Shown here: piece by piece, positions 2,817 through 54,580 of the stretch
Layout of the letters: each line of letters starts with the position of its first letter
Numbering within the stretch: the first letter of the stretch is position 1
IMG/VR virus record: IMGVR_UViG_3300014208_000030
Span: 104,076 to 168,075 of that record
Origin: a virus
Taxonomy: Duplodnaviria; Heunggongvirae; Uroviricota; Caudoviricetes
DNA length: 64,000 nt
Reading direction: 5' to 3' (one strand)
Notes under the pieces: model-generated
Told to the model about the DNA's origin: nothing
The model's input: only the letters and a program-made list of their open reading frames with translations
Database searches by the model: none
Made by a program: the position numbers and the translations under genes

Positions 2817-3011
2817 ATGAAAAACTTAAAATTGATTGAAAACTTTGTTAATGGCAATATCAGCGACGCGAAAAAAGCCGCAAAACGTGTAACCTTTGAA
2901 GCCTTAAAAGAATCATTTACAGAATATGGATTTTCAGATAATAAGGCTCAAGCATCAATGATGTTTTTGAAAAATAAAGGCTCTTTTCAGGATGCTTGCG
3001 ACGCTGAATAA
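2817..3011 (+). CDS. hypothetical early protein (64 aa)
   Basis: ORF behind promoter cassette. Confidence 0.5.
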   Translation: MKNLKLIENFVNGNISDAKKAAKRVTFEALKESFTEYGFSDNKAQASMMFLKNKGSFQDACDAE

Positions 3012-3017
3012 AAAGAC

Positions 3018-3047
3018 TTGACTTCAACGGGTTCACTTTGATATATT
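3018..3047 (+). promoter_or_regulatory. early promoter cassette (PeSL-like)
   Basis: TTGACT 3018-3023, TATATT 3042-3047, hairpin identical to copy at 391. Confidence 0.65.
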
Positions 3048-3094
3048 GAACCCGTACCAAAAAACCACAATCAACCACGTTAAAAGGAACCGTC

Positions 3095-3697
3095 ATGCCT
3101 AGAACAATTACTGAAACTTTTCAAGTTTTCACCATAGCCGAATTATCCGAATCAGCCAAGCAAAAAGCCTATGAAGAATTTTTAGAAAATTGCCTTTTTG
3201 AAGACTGGGCAGAATTCATTATTGCCGACGCCAAAACAATCGGCGCGTTAATCGGCATTAACATAGATAAAGTTTATTTTTCTGGGTTCTCTTCTCAAGG
3301 GGATGGTGCCTGTTTTGAAGGCTCTTATGAGTATAAAAAAGGCTGGAAAAAAGCGCTTAAAGAATACGCGCCAAATTGTAAAGAAGTTCTAGAAATTGCC
3401 CAAGGCTTGCAAGCTTTACAGTCAACAAATTTCTATAAATTGTCGGCTCAAGTAGTTCAGAGCGGCCACTATAACCATTCAGGATGTACAAGTATTGAAG
3501 TAACAGAGAAAGAAACCGGCTATTCTATAGGGGATGATATAGAAGAAGAAATGAAAAGCCTTTTACGTGATTTTATGGATTGGATATATAAGAGCCTTGA
3601 AACTGAATATGAGTATCAGACAAGTGAAAAAGCCTTTTTAGATGATGCCGAAGCAAACGAAAGAGAATACTACGAAAACGGCACCATGTATTTTTAA
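3095..3697 (+). CDS. hypothetical early protein (200 aa)
   Basis: ORF behind promoter cassette. Confidence 0.55.
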   Translation: MPRTITETFQVFTIAELSESAKQKAYEEFLENCLFEDWAEFIIADAKTIGALIGINIDKVYFSGFSSQGDGACFEGSYEYKKGWKKALKEYAPNCKEVLEIAQGLQALQSTNFYKLSAQVVQSGHYNHSGCTSIEVTEKETGYSIGDDIEEEMKSLLRDFMDWIYKSLETEYEYQTSEKAFLDDAEANEREYYENGTMYF

Positions 3698-3703
3698 AAA
3701 AGC

Positions 3704-3733
3704 TTGACTTCAACGGGTTCAGTTTGATGTATT
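3704..3733 (+). promoter_or_regulatory. early promoter cassette (PeSL-like)
   Basis: TTGACT 3704-3709; -10 TGTATT 3728-3733; hairpin acgggttcag/tagaacccgt. Confidence 0.55.
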
Positions 3734-3773
3734 AGAACCCGTACCAAAAACCACGTTAAAAGGAACCGCGAAA

Positions 3774-3980
3774 ATGAATCATTTAAACTATACTGATAAA
3801 GACAATAATAACTTTGTTCTAGTCTTTCATCCTTATGTAAAAGGAAATAGCGCGTGTGCTGGTTGTGCGTTTAAATTCGCTAATAGTTCAGCATGTCAAG
3901 CAGCAAAAACCTGCACGCCGAAAGACAATGACGGGAACCGATTAGTATCGGCAGGTTATGTGTGGAAGCTGGTAGATTAA
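3774..3980 (+). CDS. hypothetical early protein (68 aa, Cys-containing)
   Basis: ORF behind promoter cassette. Confidence 0.5.
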   Translation: MNHLNYTDKDNNNFVLVFHPYVKGNSACAGCAFKFANSSACQAAKTCTPKDNDGNRLVSAGYVWKLVD

Positions 3981-4067: not shown

Positions 4068-4277
4068 ATGACCGTTATCTATCAAACTGAAGTGATTAAA
4101 CAGGGAAATGATTTAATCCAAGTGAAAGTCAATTATCAAAAAATTTATTCAGAGTACCAATGCAAAGTCTATGTGAATGGATTAGTGAGAACCCAAGCAA
4201 CATATTATACGCCGGATGAAACCGACGCATTGAGCACGGCAAAAAGAATGCTCTTTGATTATAATCCAGAAAAATAA
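4068..4277 (+). CDS. hypothetical early protein (69 aa)
   Basis: ORF with SD aaagga; only partial cassette upstream. Confidence 0.45.
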   Translation: MTVIYQTEVIKQGNDLIQVKVNYQKIYSEYQCKVYVNGLVRTQATYYTPDETDALSTAKRMLFDYNPEK

Positions 4278-4281
4278 AAGC

Positions 4282-4311
4282 TTGACTTTCGTTAAGGCTC
4301 TTTGATACACT
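4282..4311 (+). promoter_or_regulatory. early promoter cassette (divergent copy)
   Basis: TTGACT 4282-4287, TACACT 4306-4311; conserved leader accaaaaaaccac...aaaggaaccgcgaaaATG. Confidence 0.5.
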
Positions 4312-4352
4312 AGACCCGTACCAAAAAACCACAACCAAAAGGAACCGCGAAA

Positions 4353-4772
4353 ATGTCAAACATAACCATAAGTCTAGCCAGTTTAGTTAAGAACAATAAA
4401 GGATTATTCAAAAGTGAAAAGCAAGCTACGTTCCTATTAAGCATGTGTGATTCTAACCATGAATACTACGCACAGAATTTAGCCGGTAGTACACTTGTCT
4501 ACTTGCTAGATGATAAAGGCATCCTCAAGGTTACTAAAATTACACCTAAAAACAATACAGTGACTTTTGACCGTAACATAAACCCTAATATTGAGATAGG
4601 TAAGAAGTTAAAACGATTAATTAATGCCATTAAGAAAAGTATTGATGAAAGAGAAGCGCAAAAAGATAGCTATAATACGCCAGAACTGTTAGAATTATAT
4701 AATAATTGTGCGGCAATTGAAGCCAAGAACCTTGCAAGCTACGAACAACAATTAAATGAGTTAGAGTTATGA
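4353..4772 (+). CDS. hypothetical early protein (139 aa)
   Basis: ORF behind promoter cassette. Confidence 0.55.
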   Translation: MSNITISLASLVKNNKGLFKSEKQATFLLSMCDSNHEYYAQNLAGSTLVYLLDDKGILKVTKITPKNNTVTFDRNINPNIEIGKKLKRLINAIKKSIDEREAQKDSYNTPELLELYNNCAAIEAKNLASYEQQLNELEL

Positions 4773-4961: not shown

Positions 4962-5441
4962 ATGAAAATCATACATAATAAATTGTGCTCTTTCGTACAA
5001 GGCAAACCAAGCGAGTCACGCAAAATTAATGAGTGGTGCGCCAATATGAAAAAATTGAATAACGATTTTATGATAATGGTAGATGATAGCGATGATCAGG
5101 AAATAAGCTTGACAATCATAATCAGCCACACTACACAAAAAGAAAGAAGCGAATATGCAGCTAGAGCTAAAGCAATGTTAAAGGAACTCACAAATAAACA
5201 AGAAAAAGAAACCATCAAGCAGATAGAAGAAAGAATTAAAAGTATAAAGTCTATCGCAATACGTACACTAGCATTAACGTTATTAGAAGAAAATAATCTT
5301 GTCGGATTAACATACTATGTGTTAGGCGTATTCAATACCATGTCTAGCCGCAATATTGATGAGTTAACCCTTAATGCAATCATTAAGCTAATGAAAACAC
5401 TAGAGCCATCTAGTACCATATTAAAAAAGCTGAAAACTTGA
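4962..5441 (+). CDS. hypothetical protein (159 aa; start moved to ATG 4962)
   Basis: Internal ATG preceded by aaaaggaaccacaaaaa SD/leader matching other early genes; track start 4911 lacks RBS. Confidence 0.5.
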   Translation: MKIIHNKLCSFVQGKPSESRKINEWCANMKKLNNDFMIMVDDSDDQEISLTIIISHTTQKERSEYAARAKAMLKELTNKQEKETIKQIEERIKSIKSIAIRTLALTLLEENNLVGLTYYVLGVFNTMSSRNIDELTLNAIIKLMKTLEPSSTILKKLKT

Positions 5442-5632
5442 GAATCTAACAGGCAAAAAATGCCTTACATGCCACGTATATTCTCAAGGTATATGATGGC
5501 ATGGCTTTTCTGAATACGTGGCATAGTGAGCCTTATATGATGTTACCAAATAGCATAAAAATGGATGTTATAATATAACATTGCAAAAATTCTGCTATGG
5601 TGTAAAAGTAGGGTTTCTGGCCTTTTATGAAC

Positions 5633-5672
5633 ATATGCCCGTATATGCCCGTATATGCCCGTATATGCCCGT
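5633..5672. repeat. tandem 10-bp repeat ATATGCCCGT x4, followed by atgccc/gggcat hairpin
   Basis: four perfect head-to-tail copies read directly. Confidence 0.9.
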
Positions 5673-5833
5673 AAGGGCATGCTTGCGCCCACGCACATTC
5701 CCAAGGTTTTGTCAACATTTTCCCAAAAACCCGCCAACATTTTCCCAAAATCTACCAATTTTCCACCAAAATCCACTCCAAAGAACCCTCAAAACACATT
5801 TCTAACCATTTGTCAAGGAGTTTTCCCAAAAAC

Positions 5834-5912
5834 CCACTTTTCATAAGTCTTTGATTCTGTTCAACAAAAGTAACTTTTTACCTAATAGGTTTTTTGAAAT
5901 ATTAGCTTGACA
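5834..5912. repeat. ~78-bp direct repeat copy 1 (ccacttttcataagt...cctaataggttttttga)
   Basis: near-identical second copy at 6103-6180. Confidence 0.85.
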
Positions 5913-6102
5913 AAAGCGCGGGAATATGCCTCAAAAACTACCTGTTTGCCATATGTGACACATTATTTTTGCTAAAAGCTTGACAATTGTCTCAAAATCT
6001 GCCTAAGAACCAATTTTTGCATCGCGTGTGTAGTTCTTGAGCATGTTTTTGGTTGTTTGTCAAGCATATTAGCAAGAAATATGGCCTAGGTTACCAAAAA
6101 AG

Positions 6103-6180
6103 CCACTTTTCATAAGTGATTGATTATAAACGATAAAAGTTACTTTTTACCTAATAGGTTTTTTGATATTTTGCTTGTCT
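6103..6180. repeat. ~78-bp direct repeat copy 2
   Basis: matches 5834-5912 with a few substitutions. Confidence 0.85.
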
Positions 6181-6227
6181 TATTTGTAGTTTTGTGTTAT
6201 ACTATTCTGTTAACAAATTTCTAAAAT

Positions 6228-6608
6228 ATGGGAGTATCAATGGCTAAACAAGATTATACAAAATCAAGATGTTACATAGACGGGAGAAGCAACCACAAAA
6301 ATTATGCCATATACATATCAATGATAGCAAGGTGCTACAACAAAGACTGCAAACAATACAAGAACTATGGATGGCGTGGGATAAGGATATGTGACAGCTG
6401 GTTAAATGATTTTTGGGAGTTTGTCAAGGATATGGGAGAAAAGCCATACAAAATGACCTTAGATAGAATAGATAACGATGGCAATTACTGCCCAAGCAAT
6501 TGCAAATGGAGTACACAAAAGGAGCAAGCAAACAACACGAGAACGACTAGCAAAACGAGTGCAAGAAACAGATATAGGCGGCTATTCCCGCAAGTTAAGT
6601 TCAAATGA
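6228..6608 (+). CDS. small basic protein with HNH_3-type homing-endonuclease-associated motif (LDRIDNDGNYCPSNCKWST); catalytic His pair not evident
   Basis: Motif YKNYGWRGI..C..W....F...MG.......LDRIDNDGNY.P.NC.W.T..EQ is common in free-standing phage HNH-family genes; embedded in repeat-rich non-coding DNA. Confidence 0.5.
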   Translation: MGVSMAKQDYTKSRCYIDGRSNHKNYAIYISMIARCYNKDCKQYKNYGWRGIRICDSWLNDFWEFVKDMGEKPYKMTLDRIDNDGNYCPSNCKWSTQKEQANNTRTTSKTSARNRYRRLFPQVKFK

Positions 6609-6609
6609 A

Positions 6610-6870
6610 ATATTAGCTTGACAACCTACTGGCAATATGCTTGCCAGTGATTATTAAGAAAATGCTTGACAAATAGCTTGGGAAATGCTTGAGAATCTGT
6701 TTAGACTAGGCGGGATGCTTGGCAGGTGTTTAGCAAAAAGCTTGCCAAAATGATTTGTCAAGTAATATTTTGAAGCAGGTTGATGCATAGTTTTTATTGT
6801 TTGTCAAGTAGTTTTCGCTTGGGTTATTTGCGGGGAGTGGTTCGAAAAAGCTTGACAAAGTGAGAAAAAA
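6610..6870. repeat. cluster of ~12 GCTTGnnA (mostly GCTTGACA) motifs in both orientations
   Basis: gcttgaca/gcttgcca/gcttggga/gcttgaga/tgtcaagt copies counted by eye in a 260-bp non-coding stretch; more copies at 5906, 5980, 6055. Confidence 0.7.
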
Positions 6871-7037
6871 CAGTATAGGGAGCTTGGATGGAGCGCGTCA
6901 GCGCGAGCCCTAGCTCACGCCAGTCTATCTGTTTGAAAAATTTTTCCGACCAAATATTCTGGCACCAAAAACCATTCCTGTAAAGTCACTTCCAAAATTT
7001 TTTTCTCCAGGATATTCCATACCAAATTTTCAACCCT

Positions 7038-8849
7038 TCAGTATCCCACAGCCTCTTCAAAAGTGCAACCAAAATTATTCCATGACTGTATCTCCAATCG
7101 CATGGTATCCAGCCGCTCAAAATTTGCCATAATATATTCCATATCAGACTCAAAAAATGGTGTAATCTCACCAGTGGTTTCACAGACAGTATATGGCATG
7201 TGATTTCGCTTCTCCCAATTCTTTCCTTTCAATGTCGGGCGAAAATTTGTATAATGATTAAGTGCAAGCACTTGCTCTATAGTCGTCGCGCAAGATACCG
7301 GAAAATAATGATCATAATGCCAGTCTCCTTGATTGTGCCAACCAATACCATCAGTGAATTGACTCTCAATAAACTCATAAAATACTTCCATAGAGCAGCC
7401 CAATATGGCTTCCGTCTTTTCTGTTTTTGGGTGTCCCGTTCGTCTGATACCGGAACTTATTAGTGATCGAACTCGTGTGGTGAACATAGCAACCGGATCA
7501 GATCGTCGTCGCTGGCGCTCTCTAGCATACTTGCGTTTCCTTGCTTCTGGTGATAGGTTTTTATTATTTTCTCTGGCAGTTTCCTTAGCCTCCTGTCGCT
7601 TCTTATCGGCATGCTCGGCGAGTTCATCTGGAGTCATTCCGAGTAGTGGGTTTCTGCAAATTGGACATTTGCCTCCGGCAATATGTGATGCTGGCATCTG
7701 CTCGAACTCTCCATGTACTTTACATACGATAATGACTTTAGCTGTCGCTTTGATTACCACAGACTTCGAGTAGTCATATAACTCTCCATGTTGTGCTGTG
7801 GCTCGCTTGATGAACTCGCCTTGGCTCATCGTCCGTGATGCTAGGGCACACTTTGGGCAGTTTGATCCGGATGAGTGTGCGGAAGCGGTTTGGTTAAACT
7901 CACCGTGTATTTTGCATATGATGGTAATCTGCTGCCCAATAGCTACGTAATCTACTTTTGAGTAATCGTACCGATCGCCATGCGTCAGTTGCGATCGCCT
8001 AATAAACTCTTCACATGCTATTGTCTGTAGCGACATTGAGCAAGCCGCACAACCCTTACCTCGGATATGCGCATTTGCTCGTTGACTGAACTCACCATGA
8101 TCCGGACAAATTATTATTACGTTGGCCTGAGTGTGTTTGTAGTCTACTTTAGAATAATCATATCGGTCGCCGTGCACCTCCTTTGAGCGTGCAATGAAAT
8201 CTTCGTGTGAGAGTTTATTTGGCGGCTCGATCCCAGCGCCGATCCGGCTACCTTCCTTGGCGCACTCGCTACACCCAGCACCTTTGGTGTGGTTTGATGG
8301 TCTCTGCGAAAATACACCATGCGTTTTGCATATGATCTTCACCGGTGTATTGGCATCTACATACACAACATTAGAATAATCGTATCGATCGCCATGCTTT
8401 TTGGTCACTCTCTTAATGAATTCTTCGGTTGATATTGGCTGCACTCTCTTGCAATTTTCTCTTGCGCACTTGCTACACCCAGAACTCTTTATGTGCCCAT
8501 ACATAAGCTGCGAAAAGGCCCCATGCACTTTGCATATAATGGTTACTGGCGTTTTAGCGTCAACGTAATCAACTTGCGAGTAATCGAAGCGATCACCATG
8601 TACGGCAATGGCCTTCTGTACCATAGTTTCCGTCTTCTGCTTCGGTTGTTTCGGCGTGGGTGTCTTCTGTGGCACCTTCGGTACATATCTATAATACCCA
8701 GCAACCTTTTCGCTATTATTTGCGATCCATTCGGTACTATAGGCTTTGGCGCATGTTTTGCACTTATTAGAAATGCCACTTTTCATAGATGGCTGTTTAT
8801 AATACTCACCCAATGACTTCTCAATACCGCATGCTTTACATTTCTTCAT
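7038..8849 (-). CDS. HNH endonuclease with six tandem ~47-aa Cys/His repeat modules (start moved to MKKCKACG)
   Basis: C-terminal DWHYDHYFPVS...NHYTNFRPTLKGKNWEKRNH = HNH motif; six repeats of F..R...HGDRYDYS.V.Y......V.IICK.HG.F.Q....H..G.GC..C. Confidence 0.75.
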   Translation of the reverse strand: MKKCKACGIEKSLGEYYKQPSMKSGISNKCKTCAKAYSTEWIANNSEKVAGYYRYVPKVPQKTPTPKQPKQKTETMVQKAIAVHGDRFDYSQVDYVDAKTPVTIICKVHGAFSQLMYGHIKSSGCSKCARENCKRVQPISTEEFIKRVTKKHGDRYDYSNVVYVDANTPVKIICKTHGVFSQRPSNHTKGAGCSECAKEGSRIGAGIEPPNKLSHEDFIARSKEVHGDRYDYSKVDYKHTQANVIIICPDHGEFSQRANAHIRGKGCAACSMSLQTIACEEFIRRSQLTHGDRYDYSKVDYVAIGQQITIICKIHGEFNQTASAHSSGSNCPKCALASRTMSQGEFIKRATAQHGELYDYSKSVVIKATAKVIIVCKVHGEFEQMPASHIAGGKCPICRNPLLGMTPDELAEHADKKRQEAKETARENNKNLSPEARKRKYARERQRRRSDPVAMFTTRVRSLISSGIRRTGHPKTEKTEAILGCSMEVFYEFIESQFTDGIGWHNQGDWHYDHYFPVSCATTIEQVLALNHYTNFRPTLKGKNWEKRNHMPYTVCETTGEITPFFESDMEYIMANFERLDTMRLEIQSWNNFGCTFEEAVGY

Positions 8850-8891
8850 AATTTCTATTGTTATTTTAAAACAAGACTTCCGCCACATTTA

Positions 8892-27724: not shown

Positions 27725-30160
27725 CTATTTTAAATTGTAGCTTATGACTTTATAATCGAATTGATCTTTTGCATAATATCCTACTCGTTTCTCGAAATGG
27801 TCTAGGGTATGATTTTTGTAAGATTTATACGACATATCGTCCGCCAAATCGAACAGGTTACAAACATATTTCCCATTCCCCTTTCGCAGACCACGCCCAA
27901 CTGACTGCAAAACTTTTATCTTGCTCTTGTATGGTGATGCAAAAATAATATTGTCAATCCGCTTGATCGAAACACCGGTAGAAAATGTGCCATATGATGC
28001 AACTATCGTACAGTCATCTGTAGTCTCGGCAATCTGCCTAACAGCATCTCTGGACTCAACATCAACCTTGCCATGTATAAAGTGACAGTTACCAGCATCT
28101 TTTAGCAAATTGTAGATAGGCAGACCCTGCTTCCCGACGAATGTGAACAGTATTAGCGTATTACCTTTCAGAGAGTTCGCCAATCCGGCAATGAAGGCAT
28201 TTCTGCGCTCACTGGTGCATAGATAATCCATTTCTTGAGCATACGTAGCCTTGCTCCGAGCCATTGCCTTAGCAACTTCCTCGCGGTGCTTAATCAGGAT
28301 GCAGCTGATCTTCAGATTAGCGGCCTGACCGTTATCAATCAGTTCTCTGGTAGTTATAGTCTTAAATGCTTTCCCAAACAAACCCTCGATGACCAACCGG
28401 TTACATTTGCTGTCCTGCAAACTTCCGGTGAACCCGACTCGATAGGCGACATTGTGAGCCCTCTCCATAATATCGGTAATTGACTTAGATTTTGCAGTGT
28501 GGCAATTGCCTACTACAACAACAAAACCTTTTCTACGGACAATAATATTCCCAGACGGCACAGTAACGCAATGCACATTACCAGAATATTGGACGCGCTC
28601 TTTTTGCATCCCTTGCGTCCCTATGATATTGGTCTTCCGGATATATAATCTATGCACATCGGAAAACTTATCGCTCCTGCTATCTATCTGAATAGTTTTT
28701 CTTGCTATATATCCCGCTAGTACAGCAACGGTCTGATAAAAATCAACCGAGCACTCGGATGTGTTCGAATAGTAGTATCGATTCTCGCTGGATATGCTGC
28801 CATCCCAAATAACCATATACTCTATGATTTCTTTCGCCGTTTCGCTAGATAGTGTTGATACGTCAAAAAATGTAGATACATCCTTTGTCGCATAATCAAT
28901 ATTATATATACTAAACCGACGTTTTTCTTTGGTTTTCCCGTATGCTGGTATACTCTTCAGCTCATTATATGAAAACCCACCCTCAGCCATCAGTGCTAGG
29001 AACTCAGTTATTTTTCTTTCTTTAGAAAACTTAAACTGTAATACTTGTTTTCCGCCATCCCGACCAACAATACATCCGTCTGCTTGGAGTGCAATCATAA
29101 GCTTTTGTTTTGGTGTAAGTGGTCCAGAATCGCCTACGGCAAGCCCAGCCCCATATAGATTACATAAGGCATTAAAATTAACTTCTGCCGCAGTTACTTT
29201 TTTGTCAACATAGCCGTGCTTCTGTGTTCGCCTAATTAGCATATCATGGTTTGGAGTTACTAAAAGGTCTATTCTACTATCACTACTTATATGTACTAGC
29301 TCACCATCATAGTGCTTAGTGATATATCTAAGTGGCTTAACGAATGATATATTACCACAATCGTACTGAGCAACATCCGCAACCTCGCTCAATTCATCGA
29401 ATCGAACAAATCCTCTGTTTGTCAATATTTCTGTATCTGGAGAGAAGCACTCATCCTGAACAATCATATCGAACTGCTCATAATATGAGATTGGCATTTT
29501 TGCCATCGATTGGTAGGTAGTGAAGGTCAGTTGCTTATCGGTCTGCTTCTCCTGCCCAGAGTAGATCATGTGGCTTCTACCCTCAACATCCCATCCGCTT
29601 ACGCTAGAATAGTCAATGAAATCGGACTTCATTTGCGCCACCAGACCGACGGTTGGGAATATCAATAATACACGCTTCACTTCACCGATAGCTATCAGAT
29701 ATCTGATTGTGCTAAAGATAATCAGAGATTTCCCCGACGAAGTGGGGCTCTCGATGGTCGCCCTACGGTTGTCTAGAATATGTTTTATGGCGTCGACTTG
29801 GTAGTCATATACTGTGATAGGGTTTCCGGCAGAGTGCAACCGAAGAACATCGGCAATGTATTTTTCGATGATGGCTCTATCGTTGTCCACGACAGGATGT
29901 ACATCCTCATCATACTCTACTGTATAGCCAGCCTGCGCAGCGAATTCGAGAATGTGATAGAACAGGCCAGCATAAATGTTGCGAGTACCGGCGTTGAGGA
30001 GCCTGATTGTGCCATTCCACAACCCATGCTTATATGCCGGTGTAAACTTTGCACCTTCAACATCAAACGTGAAATGCGCAGCCATTTCGACAATAACACA
30101 TTTCTCGGCATCAATGTGCACATATACTTCGTTAAGTTTTCGAATTCGGATATCAGCCAT
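27725..30160 (-). CDS. uvsW: UvsW-like DExH (SF2) DNA helicase interrupted by an in-frame intein
   Basis: Walker A SPTSSGKS; extein blocks recalled to match T4 UvsW (KCNRLVIEGLFGKAFKTITTRELIDNGQAANLKI, TIVASYGTFSTGVSIKRI, VLQSVGRGLRK); motif II reads IVQDE|C...N|CHTAKS. Confidence 0.9.
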   Translation of the reverse strand: MADIRIRKLNEVYVHIDAEKCVIVEMAAHFTFDVEGAKFTPAYKHGLWNGTIRLLNAGTRNIYAGLFYHILEFAAQAGYTVEYDEDVHPVVDNDRAIIEKYIADVLRLHSAGNPITVYDYQVDAIKHILDNRRATIESPTSSGKSLIIFSTIRYLIAIGEVKRVLLIFPTVGLVAQMKSDFIDYSSVSGWDVEGRSHMIYSGQEKQTDKQLTFTTYQSMAKMPISYYEQFDMIVQDECFSPDTEILTNRGFVRFDELSEVADVAQYDCGNISFVKPLRYITKHYDGELVHISSDSRIDLLVTPNHDMLIRRTQKHGYVDKKVTAAEVNFNALCNLYGAGLAVGDSGPLTPKQKLMIALQADGCIVGRDGGKQVLQFKFSKERKITEFLALMAEGGFSYNELKSIPAYGKTKEKRRFSIYNIDYATKDVSTFFDVSTLSSETAKEIIEYMVIWDGSISSENRYYYSNTSECSVDFYQTVAVLAGYIARKTIQIDSRSDKFSDVHRLYIRKTNIIGTQGMQKERVQYSGNVHCVTVPSGNIIVRRKGFVVVVGNCHTAKSKSITDIMERAHNVAYRVGFTGSLQDSKCNRLVIEGLFGKAFKTITTRELIDNGQAANLKISCILIKHREEVAKAMARSKATYAQEMDYLCTSERRNAFIAGLANSLKGNTLILFTFVGKQGLPIYNLLKDAGNCHFIHGKVDVESRDAVRQIAETTDDCTIVASYGTFSTGVSIKRIDNIIFASPYKSKIKVLQSVGRGLRKGNGKYVCNLFDLADDMSYKSYKNHTLDHFEKRVGYYAKDQFDYKVISYNLK
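28505..29449 (-). mobile_element. intein (~315 aa) with LAGLIDADG-like homing endonuclease domain, inserted in helicase motif II (DE^CH)
   Basis: starts CFSPDTEILTNRGFV, ends ...GFVVVVGN followed by extein Cys; internal LYGAGLAVGDSG LAGLIDADG-like motif; extein junction rebuilds DECH. Confidence 0.8.
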
Positions 30161-33324: not shown

Positions 33325-33387
33325 TTCGAATAGTGGCGGCGTCATTAGGCCAAGGGCATTACCAGCAACAGTATTATCATTTGCCAC

Positions 33388-33416
33388 TTGACAAACAACC
33401 ACCAAGGTGGTATACT
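33388..33416 (+). promoter_or_regulatory. strong sigma70 promoter TTGACA-17-TATACT
   Basis: perfect -35, 17-nt spacer, TATACT; points into a 730-bp region with no ORF. Confidence 0.6.
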
Positions 33417-33599
33417 AGTCAATTAATCGCATCAGCTGACAGGAAGTTAGCGAAAGCGTCTGGAGAATTCACTCCGGCAAAGAGCGCACCTCTATCATAG
33501 CCTAGTATGGCAGTTAGAGTCACCAACGATGAAGCTATATGCCTCTGTAGTGTTGAGCATGCACCCCGTGGAATCTTTTGATTCATTATTGAGTTCGGC

Positions 33600-34147
33600 A
33601 ATAATGTTAATTCCCAAATAACCGTTCATGATGCACCCTAGAGGTGCAGCCAGTTGCAGTTAGTGATTCCGTTTTGCAACTGGTGCCGCTATGATACCAG
33701 CAAACAGATGTAAAGGCAACCGCATAGCCATGCCTACCTCATTATATGGGGTTTTCTCGGAATATCTTACGACAGTCTTTTCTGTAATAAGATTTTGTCT
33801 GCAAGGCAAAATCTTTCTCTTGTCTTTTTAAAATCTTTTATAAAAGCTTTTTTAAAAAATATCTTTATGGCCTTCGGCGGTGCTACGCACCAGTACCTTA
33901 ATGGCTTTTATAAAAATAGCTTTTCTTATTTAAACAACATTGAACCGCGCGAAGCGCCGCCGTAGGCGTTTCTATAATAACTTTTTATAAAAGATTTTAT
34001 ATTAACTGCTATAACAGTGGTTATAGAAAGCCTCCGGCGGTGCTGCGCACCAGTCATAATATGTTGTTATTTAAAAATAATACATGAACCACACGAAGCG
34101 AAGCGACGTAGGAGCTTCCTATAACCACTGCTATAAAAGCTTTTATA
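33600..34147 (+). ncRNA. candidate structured non-coding RNA region: two tandem ~130-nt repeat units (33870-33990, 34000-34140) plus upstream hairpins
   Basis: units share cggcggtgct[ag]cgcaccagt...tgaacc..gaagcg..cgtagg...ataaaag.tttt; internal inverted repeats ccttcggcgg/ccgccgtagg, ggtgc/gcacc; 12-bp imperfect IR gcagccagttgca/tgcaactggtgc at 33640-33690; no ORF >60 aa on +. Confidence 0.35.
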
Positions 34148-34155
34148 TATAAATA
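34148..34155 (+). promoter_or_regulatory. late promoter TATAAATA
   Basis: tatTATAAATAaaggatacagaaccaatataaagggctataaaATG. Confidence 0.7.
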
Positions 34156-34187
34156 AAGGATACAGAACCAATATAAAGGGCTATAAA

Positions 34188-34565
34188 ATGTCACAAAAAG
34201 AGTATCCAGTATCAAGCACTTCTCTAAGCGGTGGGACTATACCGGCTGTTGTTATTATGCAGCTAGATGGTGACGGAAATCCTCAGCCAGCCGCTATTGG
34301 GGCATCGGTCACATCAACGCCATATACATTAATAGCAACAACACTAATAATAGCTGTAGGTACAAAAAACCCGCCATTCACGGTGACATTAAAATCGGCA
34401 GATGCAACTAGAAAGATTGAATTTTCTACGGATGGCGGCACTGAATATTTTATACCGGCAATCGATATAACAAGCGCAACCATGCTAATCACTTATGCAT
34501 CGGCACCAATTACCCATATAAAAGTAACTGGTCTTATTAATGATACCCTGATAATAGTTGGTTAA
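34188..34565 (+). CDS. hypothetical late/structural protein (125 aa, Thr/Ala/Ile-rich)
   Basis: ORF behind late promoter. Confidence 0.5.
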   Translation: MSQKEYPVSSTSLSGGTIPAVVIMQLDGDGNPQPAAIGASVTSTPYTLIATTLIIAVGTKNPPFTVTLKSADATRKIEFSTDGGTEYFIPAIDITSATMLITYASAPITHIKVTGLINDTLIIVG

Positions 34566-50303: not shown

Positions 50304-50312
50304 AAATAAAGC

Positions 50313-52735: not shown

Positions 52736-53042
52736 TTAACACCAGCCATTACTCTTGGGCGTTATAATTAAGAGAGGTCTTAAGCTCATACCAGAATGAG
52801 AATTGGTACATATCGCATACCAGACAAACATCCGTGTAGAGGAGAGGTTACAAAATCGATATCGTGCCTGTATGTGTACGTAAACATCCCACTGGCTAGC
52901 AAATAGGGCTCTTGGGTGAAGCATACTAGACGGAGAATAAACAGCCTAGATGGGGGAGCGTTGGTGACGTTTAGCCCATCACTCTTATTTTAAAATAAGA
53001 GATAAATATAGCAAAATGAGTGAAGTATTTTCTCCAGCTAAG

Positions 53043-53114
53043 GCACAAGGTGTGCCGCCATCCTGTTAAGATGTGTGAGTTTGGTCCGATTCCAAAAGCT
53101 GGAGAAAATACTTT
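53043..53114 (+). tRNA. tRNA-Asn-like (anticodon GTT) embedded in a 16-bp extended inverted repeat; no CCA
   Basis: acceptor tccagct/agctgga, D-arm ggca-caaggtg-tgcc, anticodon loop cuGUUaa, T-arm tttgg-tccgatt-ccaaa; flanks gaagtattttctccagc / gctggagaaaatactt extend pairing. Confidence 0.5.
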
Positions 53115-54137: not shown

Positions 54138-54203
54138 CTTAAAAGTTAACAATATACCGGACAAGCATGCGAAAGCTGCTCAAATCGTTCCGGTTTTTAT
54201 TAT

Positions 54204-54284
54204 TGTCATGTAGCTCAGTGGTAGAGCAGTGGCGTAGTCGCACTACGCTTCCGTACGGTGGGTCAACACCACCCATGACAGCCC
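54204..54284 (+). tRNA. tRNA-like element (perfect acceptor stem tgtcatg/catgaca, canonical D-arm), anticodon arm atypical
   Basis: D-arm gctc-agtggta-gagc; T-arm ggtgg-gtcaaca-ccacc; 29 nt between D- and T-arms form gcgtag-tcgca-ctacgc hairpin; anticodon not assignable by hand. Confidence 0.4.
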
Positions 54285-54300
54285 AATTTAGCGAAATAAC

Positions 54301-54431: not shown

Positions 54432-54506
54432 TCTTGGAATTGCTGGTGAAGCATAAGTGGCGATGCACATGACTTGTAATCATGAGAACGCGGGTCGGAA
54501 CCGCGC
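54432..54506 (+). tRNA. tRNA-Thr (anticodon TGT)
   Basis: acceptor gctggtg/caccagc, D-arm gcat-aagtggcg-atgc, anticodon stem catga/tcatg loop cuUGUaa, T-arm cgcgg-gtcggaa-ccgcg, CCA. Confidence 0.8.
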
Positions 54507-54580
54507 ACCAGCTCCAACCTTTAAATGTGTCTTAAATCATGTTTTAAATCAAACTTAAATCAAAACGGAATCAAAATTAT
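54507..54580 (+). promoter_or_regulatory. AU-rich repetitive leader of gene 32 (UUAAAUC(A) x4): candidate gp32 translational autoregulation site
   Basis: ctttaaatg / cttaaatca / tttaaatca / cttaaatca repeats between tRNA-Thr and ATG 54581. Confidence 0.45.

Follow-up and report, generated by a model that had tools for sequence, protein, structure and literature searches.

Positions 5442-7037 of the 64,000-nt stretch analysed here (the window; T4-type phage record IMGVR_UViG_3300014208_000030 of IMG/VR) form a gene-poor region in which a small HNH-like gene stands among many copies of one short word, GCTTGNNA. This word belongs to the front half of the early promoters of the phage, and its copies in the region are, with one exception, not joined to a -10 element. 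We tentatively interpret the region as a convergent gene junction colonised by endonucleases, with one live and one decayed gene cassette and a set of non-productive -35/upstream words; if these words are read, it would be by the sigma70 polymerase or another reader of early promoters, and they would act as a sink or an insulator. We place this interpretation first, with somewhat less than even confidence.

The window is the terminal 64 kb of a metagenome contig of 168,088 bp (ENA ERZ27249449). Coordinates count from its first letter, negative positions lie upstream of its start, and about 70 kb (69.6 kb) were analysed in all. Genes of the + strand end at 5441 and 6608 and those of the - strand at 7038; the locus is therefore a transcriptional convergence. 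The same clone is present in a JGI assembly (168,353 bp) and in Logan contigs of a third sample, and all three public copies are identical across the region. No relatives were found, and all evidence is intrinsic to this sequence.

GCTTGNNA occurs 11 times in 5442-7037, against 1.15 copies expected from the rest of the window (P 4e-8), which bears out the dense, two-way GCTTGnnA array described in the original prediction. The counts for TTGACA (11 against 1.13 expected; P 3e-8) and CTTGAC (10 against 0.84) are similar. A position matrix derived from the local copies gave 14 matches of at least 16 bits in 69.6 kb, 11 of them in the region, a figure that is circular for the local copies. The copies are located as follows.

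5905, 5978, 6616, 6639, 6664, 6676, 6687, 6717, 6740, 6850; + strand; GCTTGNNA
5811, 6058, 6422, 6756, 6802; - strand; TGTCAAG (CTTGACA on the - strand)

The analysis showed that AAAGCTTGACAA is the -35 and proximal upstream part of the phage's own sigma70-type early promoters. All intergenic copies of CTTGACA outside the region (-2862, 33387, 40913, 45683, 50312, and 52177) are followed by a -10 of 5.1-7.1 bits, near or above the 99th percentile, and the strong promoters at 50311 (-10 TATACT) and 52176 (-10 TATAAT) contain the same word. Inside the region, the mean best -10 score of 19 CTTGNNA sites is -0.46 bits, compared with a genome-wide null of -0.74. These words have no -10 beyond chance and are therefore unable to act as ordinary promoters, the exception being the promoter of the HNH-like gene. 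A promoter-like consensus scan of the region returned 11 sites against 9.1 ± 3.5 in shuffled sequences, with the enrichment confined to the -35 half. The earlier remark that this word is the -35 of strong promoters elsewhere, while most copies here are without a -10, thus proved correct. A perfect AAGCTTGACAAT (19.7 bits on the local matrix, no -10) was also found at 5107-5114, inside the coding sequence of the last + strand gene and 330 nt upstream of the region.

The T4 MotA box has the consensus WWWTGCTT(t/c)A and is positioned at -30. The local consensus, WWW(T/A)GCTTG..A, resembles it, so that the words might be activator sites of middle-mode promoters or a sink for the activator (for MotA and the -30 rule, see Kreuzer and Brister, 2010; PMC3016281). 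We consider this very unlikely. Three of the words are indeed followed by TATGC(T/C/A) 12 nt later, but only because the next repeat unit starts there. At no distance typical of a middle promoter is TAnnnT enriched around the GCTTG words, of which the 70 kb contain 178 (1-5 occurrences at each distance, with 3.7 expected), and no MotA/AsiA family was detected among the 89 open reading frames (ORFs) bulk-scanned against Pfam or among the neighbouring ORFs, which cover 70 of the 168 kb. The nearest relatives of the UvsW protein are cyanophage-like, a group that is not known to have MotA/AsiA. MotA-box promoters were rejected on two of these grounds, the absence of -10 enrichment at the required spacing and the lack of a MotA/AsiA gene in the scans.

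A listing of every TTGAC site in 70 kb revealed at least 12 copies of an early-promoter cassette of about 120 nt, all on the + strand between -3837 and 4355. It is composed of an A-rich upstream part, AAAGCTTGACT, a stem-loop (ACGGGTTC/GAACCCGT) bracketing an extended -10 (TGATATATT), and a conserved leader, ACCCGTACCAAAAACCAC..TTAAAAGGAACC..ATG, with a ribosome-binding site (RBS). The palindrome around the -10 could also be an operator. Judged by sequence, the cassette matches the promoter-early stem-loop (PeSL) elements described from the hyperplastic regions of T4-type phages (Arbiol et al., 2010, PMC2839356; Comeau et al., 2014, PMC4122927). Descent of the whole region from such cassettes was rejected, as their profile matches only the 11-nt -35 word (E 14-38).

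350-471, 1972-2086, 2698-2819, 2978-3097, 3668-3776, 4244-4355; + strand; examples of the early-promoter cassette

The HNH-like gene and its probable decayed copy

The following features make up the live cassette and its presumed duplicate.

6240-6608 (6228-6608 from the first ATG); + strand; intact HNH-like gene, 122 aa, with a GGGAG RBS before 6240
6175-6203; + strand; promoter of the HNH-like gene, TTGTCT-17 nt-TGtTATACT (extended -10), 9/12 with TG in the consensus scan
6627-6649; + strand; hairpin ACUGGCAAuaugcUUGCCAGU with a 9-bp stem, then GAUUAUU, candidate terminator
6088-6172; + strand; 85-nt repeat, copy b, directly upstream of the live HNH promoter
5819-5903; + strand; 85-nt repeat, copy a, probable head of the decayed cassette copy
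5905-5912; + strand; GCTTGACA, probable remnant of the -35 in the decayed copy of the cassette, corresponding in position to GCTTGTCT at 6173-6180
5914-6087; + strand; probable decayed HNH-like gene fragment (pseudogene), collinear with 6287-6459 of the live gene

The only convincing ORF of the region, 6240-6608, matches PHROG HNH-endonuclease families (PHROG 3377, 7e-39), belongs to a family with 201 homologs found, and keeps all family-conserved positions, including DRIDNDGNY..NCKW..EQANN. The original prediction was right in listing a single, HNH-like ORF, but its assignment to HNH_3 was not reproduced: no match was obtained to Pfam HNH_3, to any other Pfam model, to NCBIfam models, or to a PDB relative. 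The family consensus (DRID..N..N; DRIDNDGNY..NC(K/R)W..EQANN) is also devoid of the first catalytic histidine of H-N-H. Nuclease activity is, therefore, putative. Among the family members (homologs P0003-P0122), some possess helix-turn-helix (HTH) domains of the HTH_23 or Sigma70_r4_2 type, and one homolog of the small HNH-like protein (P0005) also has DUF723. Elsewhere, the homologs are compact insertions between ordinary genes of unrelated phages and are not accompanied by word arrays. Examples adjoin SLT lysozyme and portal genes with tight spacing, and the distribution is sporadic and insertion-like.

The gene is preceded by the one good promoter of the region and followed, 19 nt past its stop codon, by the candidate terminator hairpin (RNA fold -12.2 kcal/mol, z -3.1), whose 3' arm holds the word at 6639.

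A 269-nt tandem duplication of the HNH cassette (85-nt element, promoter, gene), with decay of the upstream copy, is well supported by the sequence rather than proven. It would explain the long direct repeat, which is real, although it measures 85 nt at 5819/6088 instead of the 78 bp at 5834/6103 reported before. The two copies, 5819-5903 and 6088-6172, are 82% identical, with 15 substitutions and no indels. Behind copy a, GCTTGACA lies in register with GCTTGTCT of the live promoter and has no -10 next to it (-1.3 bits). The adjoining 174 nt, 5914-6087, had been included in a non-coding region; the region is repeat-dense as described, but this part appears to be what remains of a gene that has lost about 90 nt, comprising its -10, its RBS, and its first codons. 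Its glocal alignment to the live gene scores 63.5, against 21.7 ± 5.2 (maximum 32.5) for 287 AT-rich, composition-matched windows of the same phage, none of which scored as high (z 8.0). The alignment reached z 7.5 against dinucleotide shuffles, z 8.8 in a separate shuffle run, and z 4.1-4.9 when local. At the protein level, tblastn aligned RVCSS*ACFWLFVKHISKK with RICDSWLNDFWEFVKDMGEK, again collinearly. Two more stretches, 5690-5818 and 5526-5700, were considered as further decayed copies and failed with composition-matched controls.

Three of the words are attributable to this cassette. The one at 5905 would be the relic -35, and those at 6058 and 6422 would correspond to the codons E-F-V-K in the decayed and the live gene, respectively; on the - strand these codons give TTGACAAA (live gene, 6422-6428). 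The decayed fragment holds words at 5978 (+) and 6058-6064 (-), and the former has no exact counterpart in the live gene (GGTGCT-ACAA there).

The part of the pseudogene beside the 85-nt element contains 18 gap events covering 63 nt, whereas the element itself is free of indels. This difference suggests constraint on the element in both copies. A word resembling the IHF consensus is present in each repeat and was counted as one independent occurrence; in copy a it lies on the - strand (5845-5856), and the same copy contains the palindrome AAAAGTAACTTTT.

The right-hand array and its possible reader

The words are densest between the HNH-like gene and the - strand block (6609-6900).

6616, 6639, 6664, 6676, 6687, 6717, 6740, 6817, 6850, 6883; + strand; right-hand array, ten GCTTG in 272 nt
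6756-6762, 6802-6808; - strand; inverted TTGACAAA in the right-hand array
6660-6695; 11-nt tandem sub-array

No ORFs lie between the words of the region, and the right-hand array has no -10 at promoter spacing. Its seven tandem + strand words all contain GCTTG with an A at position 8; variation is confined to positions 6-7 and the flanks. In the ten strong copies, the eight-base core CTTGACAA is 100% identical and the flanks agree at 26-40%, with 27% expected by chance. In promoter statistics of E. coli, the TTG of the sigma70 -35 is more conserved than the ACA, and the profile of the word mirrors this. From these patterns, the array looks like constraint on a binding word. An invariant core in random flanks also fits the protein-binding sites that the original prediction had offered together with iterons and an origin; the origin itself gained no support (see below). 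The spacings between the words are 23, 25, 12, 11, 30, 23, and 110 nt, with seven + strand words within 125 nt, and helical phasing was not significant (Rayleigh tests, 10.5-23 nt, P 0.05-0.57).

The array begins with a short copied segment that spans the stop codon of the HNH-like gene: 6606-6624 is 19/19 identical to 5895-5913, the end of repeat copy a with its -35. Because of this copy and the 11-nt tandem sub-array, a local origin of the array from the promoter word of the cassette by slippage is plausible, though it is inferred. By eye, the array could also pass for another decayed HNH copy, with z 3.4 against shuffles; this was rejected because it reached only z 1.3 with matched controls, 39 of the 287 scoring as high. 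The idea that the array is a C-terminal domain lost from a truncated gene was rejected too, since the ORF retains every position conserved in the family and no homolog matches the DNA past its stop codon. The array matched no Rfam family and showed no derivation from the early-promoter cassette.

Taken together, the history of the locus may have been as follows. Two convergent early accessory gene blocks of a T4-type phage meet here, and a free-standing cassette of an HNH-family endonuclease has probably colonised the junction and been duplicated in tandem, after which the upstream copy decayed. The additional words, especially the ten GCTTG in 6616-6887, would have arisen locally from the promoter word of the cassette by slippage and short duplications, and they may have been kept because something reads them. 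The simplest reader would be the host RNA polymerase holoenzyme, through sigma70 region 4 and the alpha-CTD, or a factor that recognises the -35 regions of early promoters. Such a reader would dock without opening the DNA, and the array would be a non-productive polymerase sink or an insulator at the junction around a mobile gene, not a replication origin.

Several points weigh against this interpretation. Binding of the words by a protein is putative, and a -35 without a -10 binds polymerase only weakly. The right-hand array could not be traced to the HNH cassette with matched controls, and nhmmer, with its conservative local statistics, gave the pseudogene alignment a non-significant E of 1.8. 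Selection is not separable from recent slippage or short-patch conversion, given that the copies are identical and relatives are lacking. Finally, the search for a dedicated binding protein covered 70 of the 168 kb.

The same facts can be read as neutral debris: endonuclease cassettes would have been duplicated and decayed, slippage would have left further remains, and the words would be functionless, await deletion, and owe their sameness to recent slippage or to templated short-patch conversion between quasi-repeats. We regard this as unlikely, though it is the alternative to be taken most seriously. One decayed cassette copy is demonstrable, the 11-nt sub-array at 6660-6695 is typical of slippage, and across 20 kb two metagenomes are set apart by nothing but one 8-nt unit of the slippage type, located in a neighbouring array. 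Several words stand at places where the live gene has near-matches bordered by microhomology (e.g., AAAAGCCATACAAAATGA and AAAAGCTTGACAAAGTGA), and promoter cassettes of the PeSL type are known recombination substrates in T4-type hyperplastic regions (PMC2839356). On the other hand, T4-type genomes are densely coding, yet about 1.2 kb persists here even though the duplicate has diverged by about 18% and by many indels. Perfect word cores in randomised flanks, a right-hand array not detectably derived from the cassette, and an 85-nt element without indels in both copies also speak against debris.

It is doubtful, but conceivable from the sequence, that the right-hand array and perhaps both 85-nt elements constitute a selected protein-binding device made of promoter front halves. 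As a decoy or sink, it might titrate the host sigma70 polymerase or a phage -35 reader and could serve as a timing or insulation device; as an iteron-like site, it might take part in replication control in a T4-type phage. Together with region A (see below), it might act in cis as a paired system placed on both sides of the anti-restriction/accessory module. The eight 39-nt units of region A lie 5.5 kb upstream and share one inverted word with the 85-nt elements.

One or more non-coding RNA genes, such as a sponge for a protein or a small RNA with repeated GCUUG, are another reading, to which we give very little credence. A candidate extended -10 is available at 5566-5574, the HNH transcript may read into the array, and the - strand of 6600-6935 folds with z -3.9. 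This folding signal, however, is what inverted word copies give by construction. There is no Rfam match at the gathering threshold or at E<0.1, and no promoter/terminator pair surrounds the array.

Pattern scans detected similar arrays on unrelated viral contigs. All are non-coding, and the contigs have no protein in common with this phage; the arrays therefore serve as an analogy only. Contig L095 (4860-5140) carries AAATGCTTGACA six times with a period of 12, and related arrays of nearly the same word lie on L079 (3140-3270), on L074 (1112-1310), and in the L085 family (3029-3290). They comprise nine copies of TGTCAAGCgtgt, a set of five 43-nt units in which every unit holds an inverted TGTCAAGC/CTTGACA pair, and arrays of GCTTGTCA in a family of phages of about 45 kb. 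Among the phages with such arrays, one encodes a YonO-like polymerase and another a temperate-type module.

The question of a replication origin and other features of the locus

The region had been named as a candidate origin or regulatory hub, and it can be read as a replication origin or an origin-control locus. The words would then be bound as iterons by an initiator of the phage or of the host, or, being promoter-type elements, would serve to prime replication as at the origins of T4, and the AT-rich 85-nt elements would provide bending and unwinding. We consider this improbable, and nothing tested favours it. The proposal draws on the scarcity of genes and the presence of several repeat families that run both ways, in a phage type with promoter-associated origins (PMC3016281), on word cores that look constrained, and on 85-nt repeats that are each AT-rich and contain an IHF-consensus word. 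It also has a precedent in the origin of the PLE satellite, which lies in 2.7 kb of non-coding DNA where a single one of four repeat types is the iteron (PMC7145576).

The position of the locus does not agree with this idea. It is a transcriptional convergence, whereas oriE, oriF, and oriG of T4 are located at divergences with a compositional shift (PMC3016281), and the cumulative G-C curve has its maximum at 6907 and its minimum at about 30.5 kb. Among the 60-nt windows of the 70 kb, the least stable one of this region (6112) comes only about 15th, and it is positioned upstream of the HNH promoter. Word spacing is irregular without significant phasing, DnaA-like boxes are at chance level, and the long direct repeat is accounted for by gene duplication. 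Initiators (Rep, DnaA), MotA/AsiA, and sigma-like or HU/IHF-like proteins were not found among the ORFs scanned.

Comparison with individual T4 origins gave the same picture. oriF and oriG need a working promoter (a MotA box at -30 and a sigma70 -10) plus a downstream unwinding element (PMC3016281). Apart from the HNH promoter, the region offers no -10 for R-loop priming, and none stands at middle-promoter spacing. oriE combines an early promoter with 12-nt iterons (Kreuzer and Brister, 2010; PMC3016281); these iterons lie inside gene 5, and oriE was therefore rejected as a structural model. A positional analogy to oriF through uvsY was rejected as well, uvsY being absent from the divergent junction that was checked.

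Two other stretches deserve mention. A second gene-free repeat region, region A, straddles the window start (-362 to 469; L005:5286-6117). It contains six AAATCTC(T/A) units with a period of 8, and the single 8-nt difference between the ENA and JGI assemblies is an extra unit here. Eight direct copies of aaATCA(A/G)NNNNTTA follow a strict 39/38-nt period (-180 to 91), accompanied by one inverted copy; the word fits the IHF consensus WATCAANNNNTTR and is found inverted in each 85-nt repeat. Judging by its regularity, this array is a better iteron candidate than 5442-7037. Searches of viral contigs for patterns of the region A type returned plain AT-rich tandem repeats.

The second stretch, 33387-34190, is gene-poor. 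It opens with a strong promoter, TTGACA-17-TATACT at 33387, followed by about 370 nt without an ORF, and includes two GC-rich direct repeats of about 25 nt, 160 nt apart (33870 and 34030). The palindrome TATAAAAGCTTTTATA occurs five times, a TATAAATA of the T4-late type stands at about 34147, and two of the least stable 60-nt windows in 70 kb fall within the stretch. It has no Rfam match. A non-coding RNA might be encoded here, or the stretch might contain a better candidate for an origin; the cumulative G-C minimum is at about 30.5 kb.

The remaining features of the region and its flanking genes are listed below.

5046-5441; + strand; last gene of the + block
5464-5530; + strand; long imperfect hairpin just past the stop of the 5046-5441 gene, candidate terminator or RNA-stability element
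5566-5574; + strand; TGtTATAAT, extended -10-like, without a -35, candidate promoter read from the sequence
5633-5673; tandem decamer ATATGCCCGT, 4.1 copies, 100% matches
5698-5776; CAACATTTTCCCAAAAnCnnC units, three to four, about 21-22 nt each
6893-6925; one or more GC-rich hairpins where the two transcription units converge, weak candidate for a terminator acting in both directions
7038-8888; - strand; DUF723-repeat endonuclease, 616 aa, first gene of the - block, 3' end toward the array

The fourfold decamer and the three copies of TTTTCCCAAAA of the original prediction were confirmed, as were the nested inverted repeats at the place it had given. The inverted repeats have arms at 5469-5479/5514-5524 (11 nt, 100%) and 5437-5455/5470-5488 (19 nt, 79%). 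The hairpin at 5464-5530 folds at -24.7 kcal/mol (z -3.6; none of 200 shuffles as stable) and has no U-run, while the hairpins at 6893-6925 (-13.8 and -16.5 kcal/mol) are not better than shuffles. The extended -10 at 5566-5574 is not in the output of the consensus scan, since the scan requires a -35. The last decamer unit pairs with GGGCAT just downstream, and Logan assemblies of another sample break at this array. TTTTCCCAAAA occurs at 5718, 5740, and 5821, and a 21-nt-period array with 79% matches extends over 5713-5776; the CAACATTTTCCCAAAAnCnnC units and the beginning of the 85-nt repeat have 15/15 nt (TTTTCCCAAAAACCC) in common. For both the decamer array and the 21-nt units, slippage is the sole explanation we offer.

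Small + strand genes (encoding ArdA, DUF7227, a T4 Y05D homolog, and others) extend up to 5441. The 616-aa endonuclease on the other side comprises an N-terminal zinc-finger-like part, five tandem modules of about 65 aa (HGDRYDYS..IICxxHGEFSQ; DUF723/treble-clef type), and a C-terminal H-N-H-like motif (DWHYDHYFP). Core T4-type functions encoded in the window include UvsW, gp32, UvsY, gp53, and baseplate proteins; genes for an NAD-dependent ligase and NAMPT are also present. UvsW is a helicase with an inserted element and is about 43% identical to cyanophage UvsW. Its gene (27725-30160, - strand) gives split alignments to all phage homologs (62% covered, two pieces), and residues ~208-554 match families usual for inteins or inserted endonucleases, which indicates a probable intein-like insertion. 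The window contains a tRNA block, for which the calls conflict at 50.6-54.5 kb: tRNA-Asn (53032-53105) and tRNA-Ala(cgc) (54203-54285) of ARAGORN are not in Rfam at the gathering score, and the Rfam tRNA at 54442-54513 was not called by ARAGORN.

Over the 20.3 kb compared, the ENA and JGI assemblies differ by no substitutions and by one 8-nt indel outside the region. The breakpoints of the two long contigs differ; the map is therefore circular or permuted. No close relative of the phage was found in GenBank phages, IMG/VR, JGI metagenomes, or a collection of 5.8 billion proteins. GenBank phages and plasmids contained no useful DNA relatives of 5000-7500, of 5442-7037, or of the array at -362 to 469. 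In protein searches, the genes flanking the region were orphans without a synteny partner, and relatives of the DHH and DUF7227 genes shared that single gene and nothing further.

Comparison with known systems

Both components of the locus, a promoter vocabulary of the PeSL type and free-standing endonuclease cassettes, are known; the array of promoter halves is unusual. T4-type genomes are almost entirely coding, so that 1.2 kb of persistent non-coding DNA built from such halves is out of the ordinary. If RNA polymerase or an early-promoter factor does read the words, the phage would possess a decoy or insulator made of half-promoters, and the locus would give access to the way in which early transcription is buffered at the collision of gene blocks. 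If the region is debris, it documents the duplication and decay of mobile endonuclease cassettes in hyperplastic regions. It would then also illustrate that the -35 of a cassette and its coding word (on the other strand, TTGACAAA) can pass for iterons lying in both orientations, a caution for origin calls made from sequence only.

The locus resembles T4 origins in its promoter-type words in a T4-type phage, its repeats, and its proximity to a strand switch, but differs in being a convergence at a skew maximum, with no -10 and no distinct unwinding element. With the PLE satellite (Barth et al., 2019; PMC7145576) it shares an extended stretch of non-coding DNA in which several families of repeats occur and not every family has to be functional. 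PLE, however, has a cognate RepA_N initiator and divergent gene clusters, in contrast to the converging blocks here, for which no initiator was found in the ORFs scanned.

There is also a likeness to the free-standing homing endonucleases of T4-type phages (seg/mob). A small ORF of an endonuclease family occupies an intergenic slot and has a promoter of its own, its homologs are scattered as compact insertions, a second endonuclease gene lies next door, and there is a probable decayed duplicate. Differences are the family's missing first histidine and lack of a Pfam HNH_3 match, and a tandem duplicate with a word array has not been described for such genes.

At least 12 PeSL-like cassettes are present in the + block just upstream, the word of the region is the -35/upstream part of the same promoter vocabulary, and the locus lies at the end of such a hyperplastic region and shows an apparent duplication on the scale of a cassette. 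Unlike PeSL elements, the words here have no -10, stem-loop, or leader, and the profile match is limited to 11 nt. They are all of the TTGACAAA type (not TTGACT), occur in both orientations 11-30 nt apart, and have no ORFs between them.

The promoter islands of E. coli are stretches of horizontally acquired DNA in which dense promoter-like signals bind RNA polymerase with little productive transcription (Panyukov and Ozoline, 2013; PMC3661553). They have many complete predicted start points and form open complexes, whereas only the -35/upstream half is present here; they belong to a host chromosome rather than a phage genome, and polymerase binding in the phage is putative. By analogy, these islands would nevertheless be the closest functional model for a convergent junction at which half-promoters hold polymerase without productive transcription.

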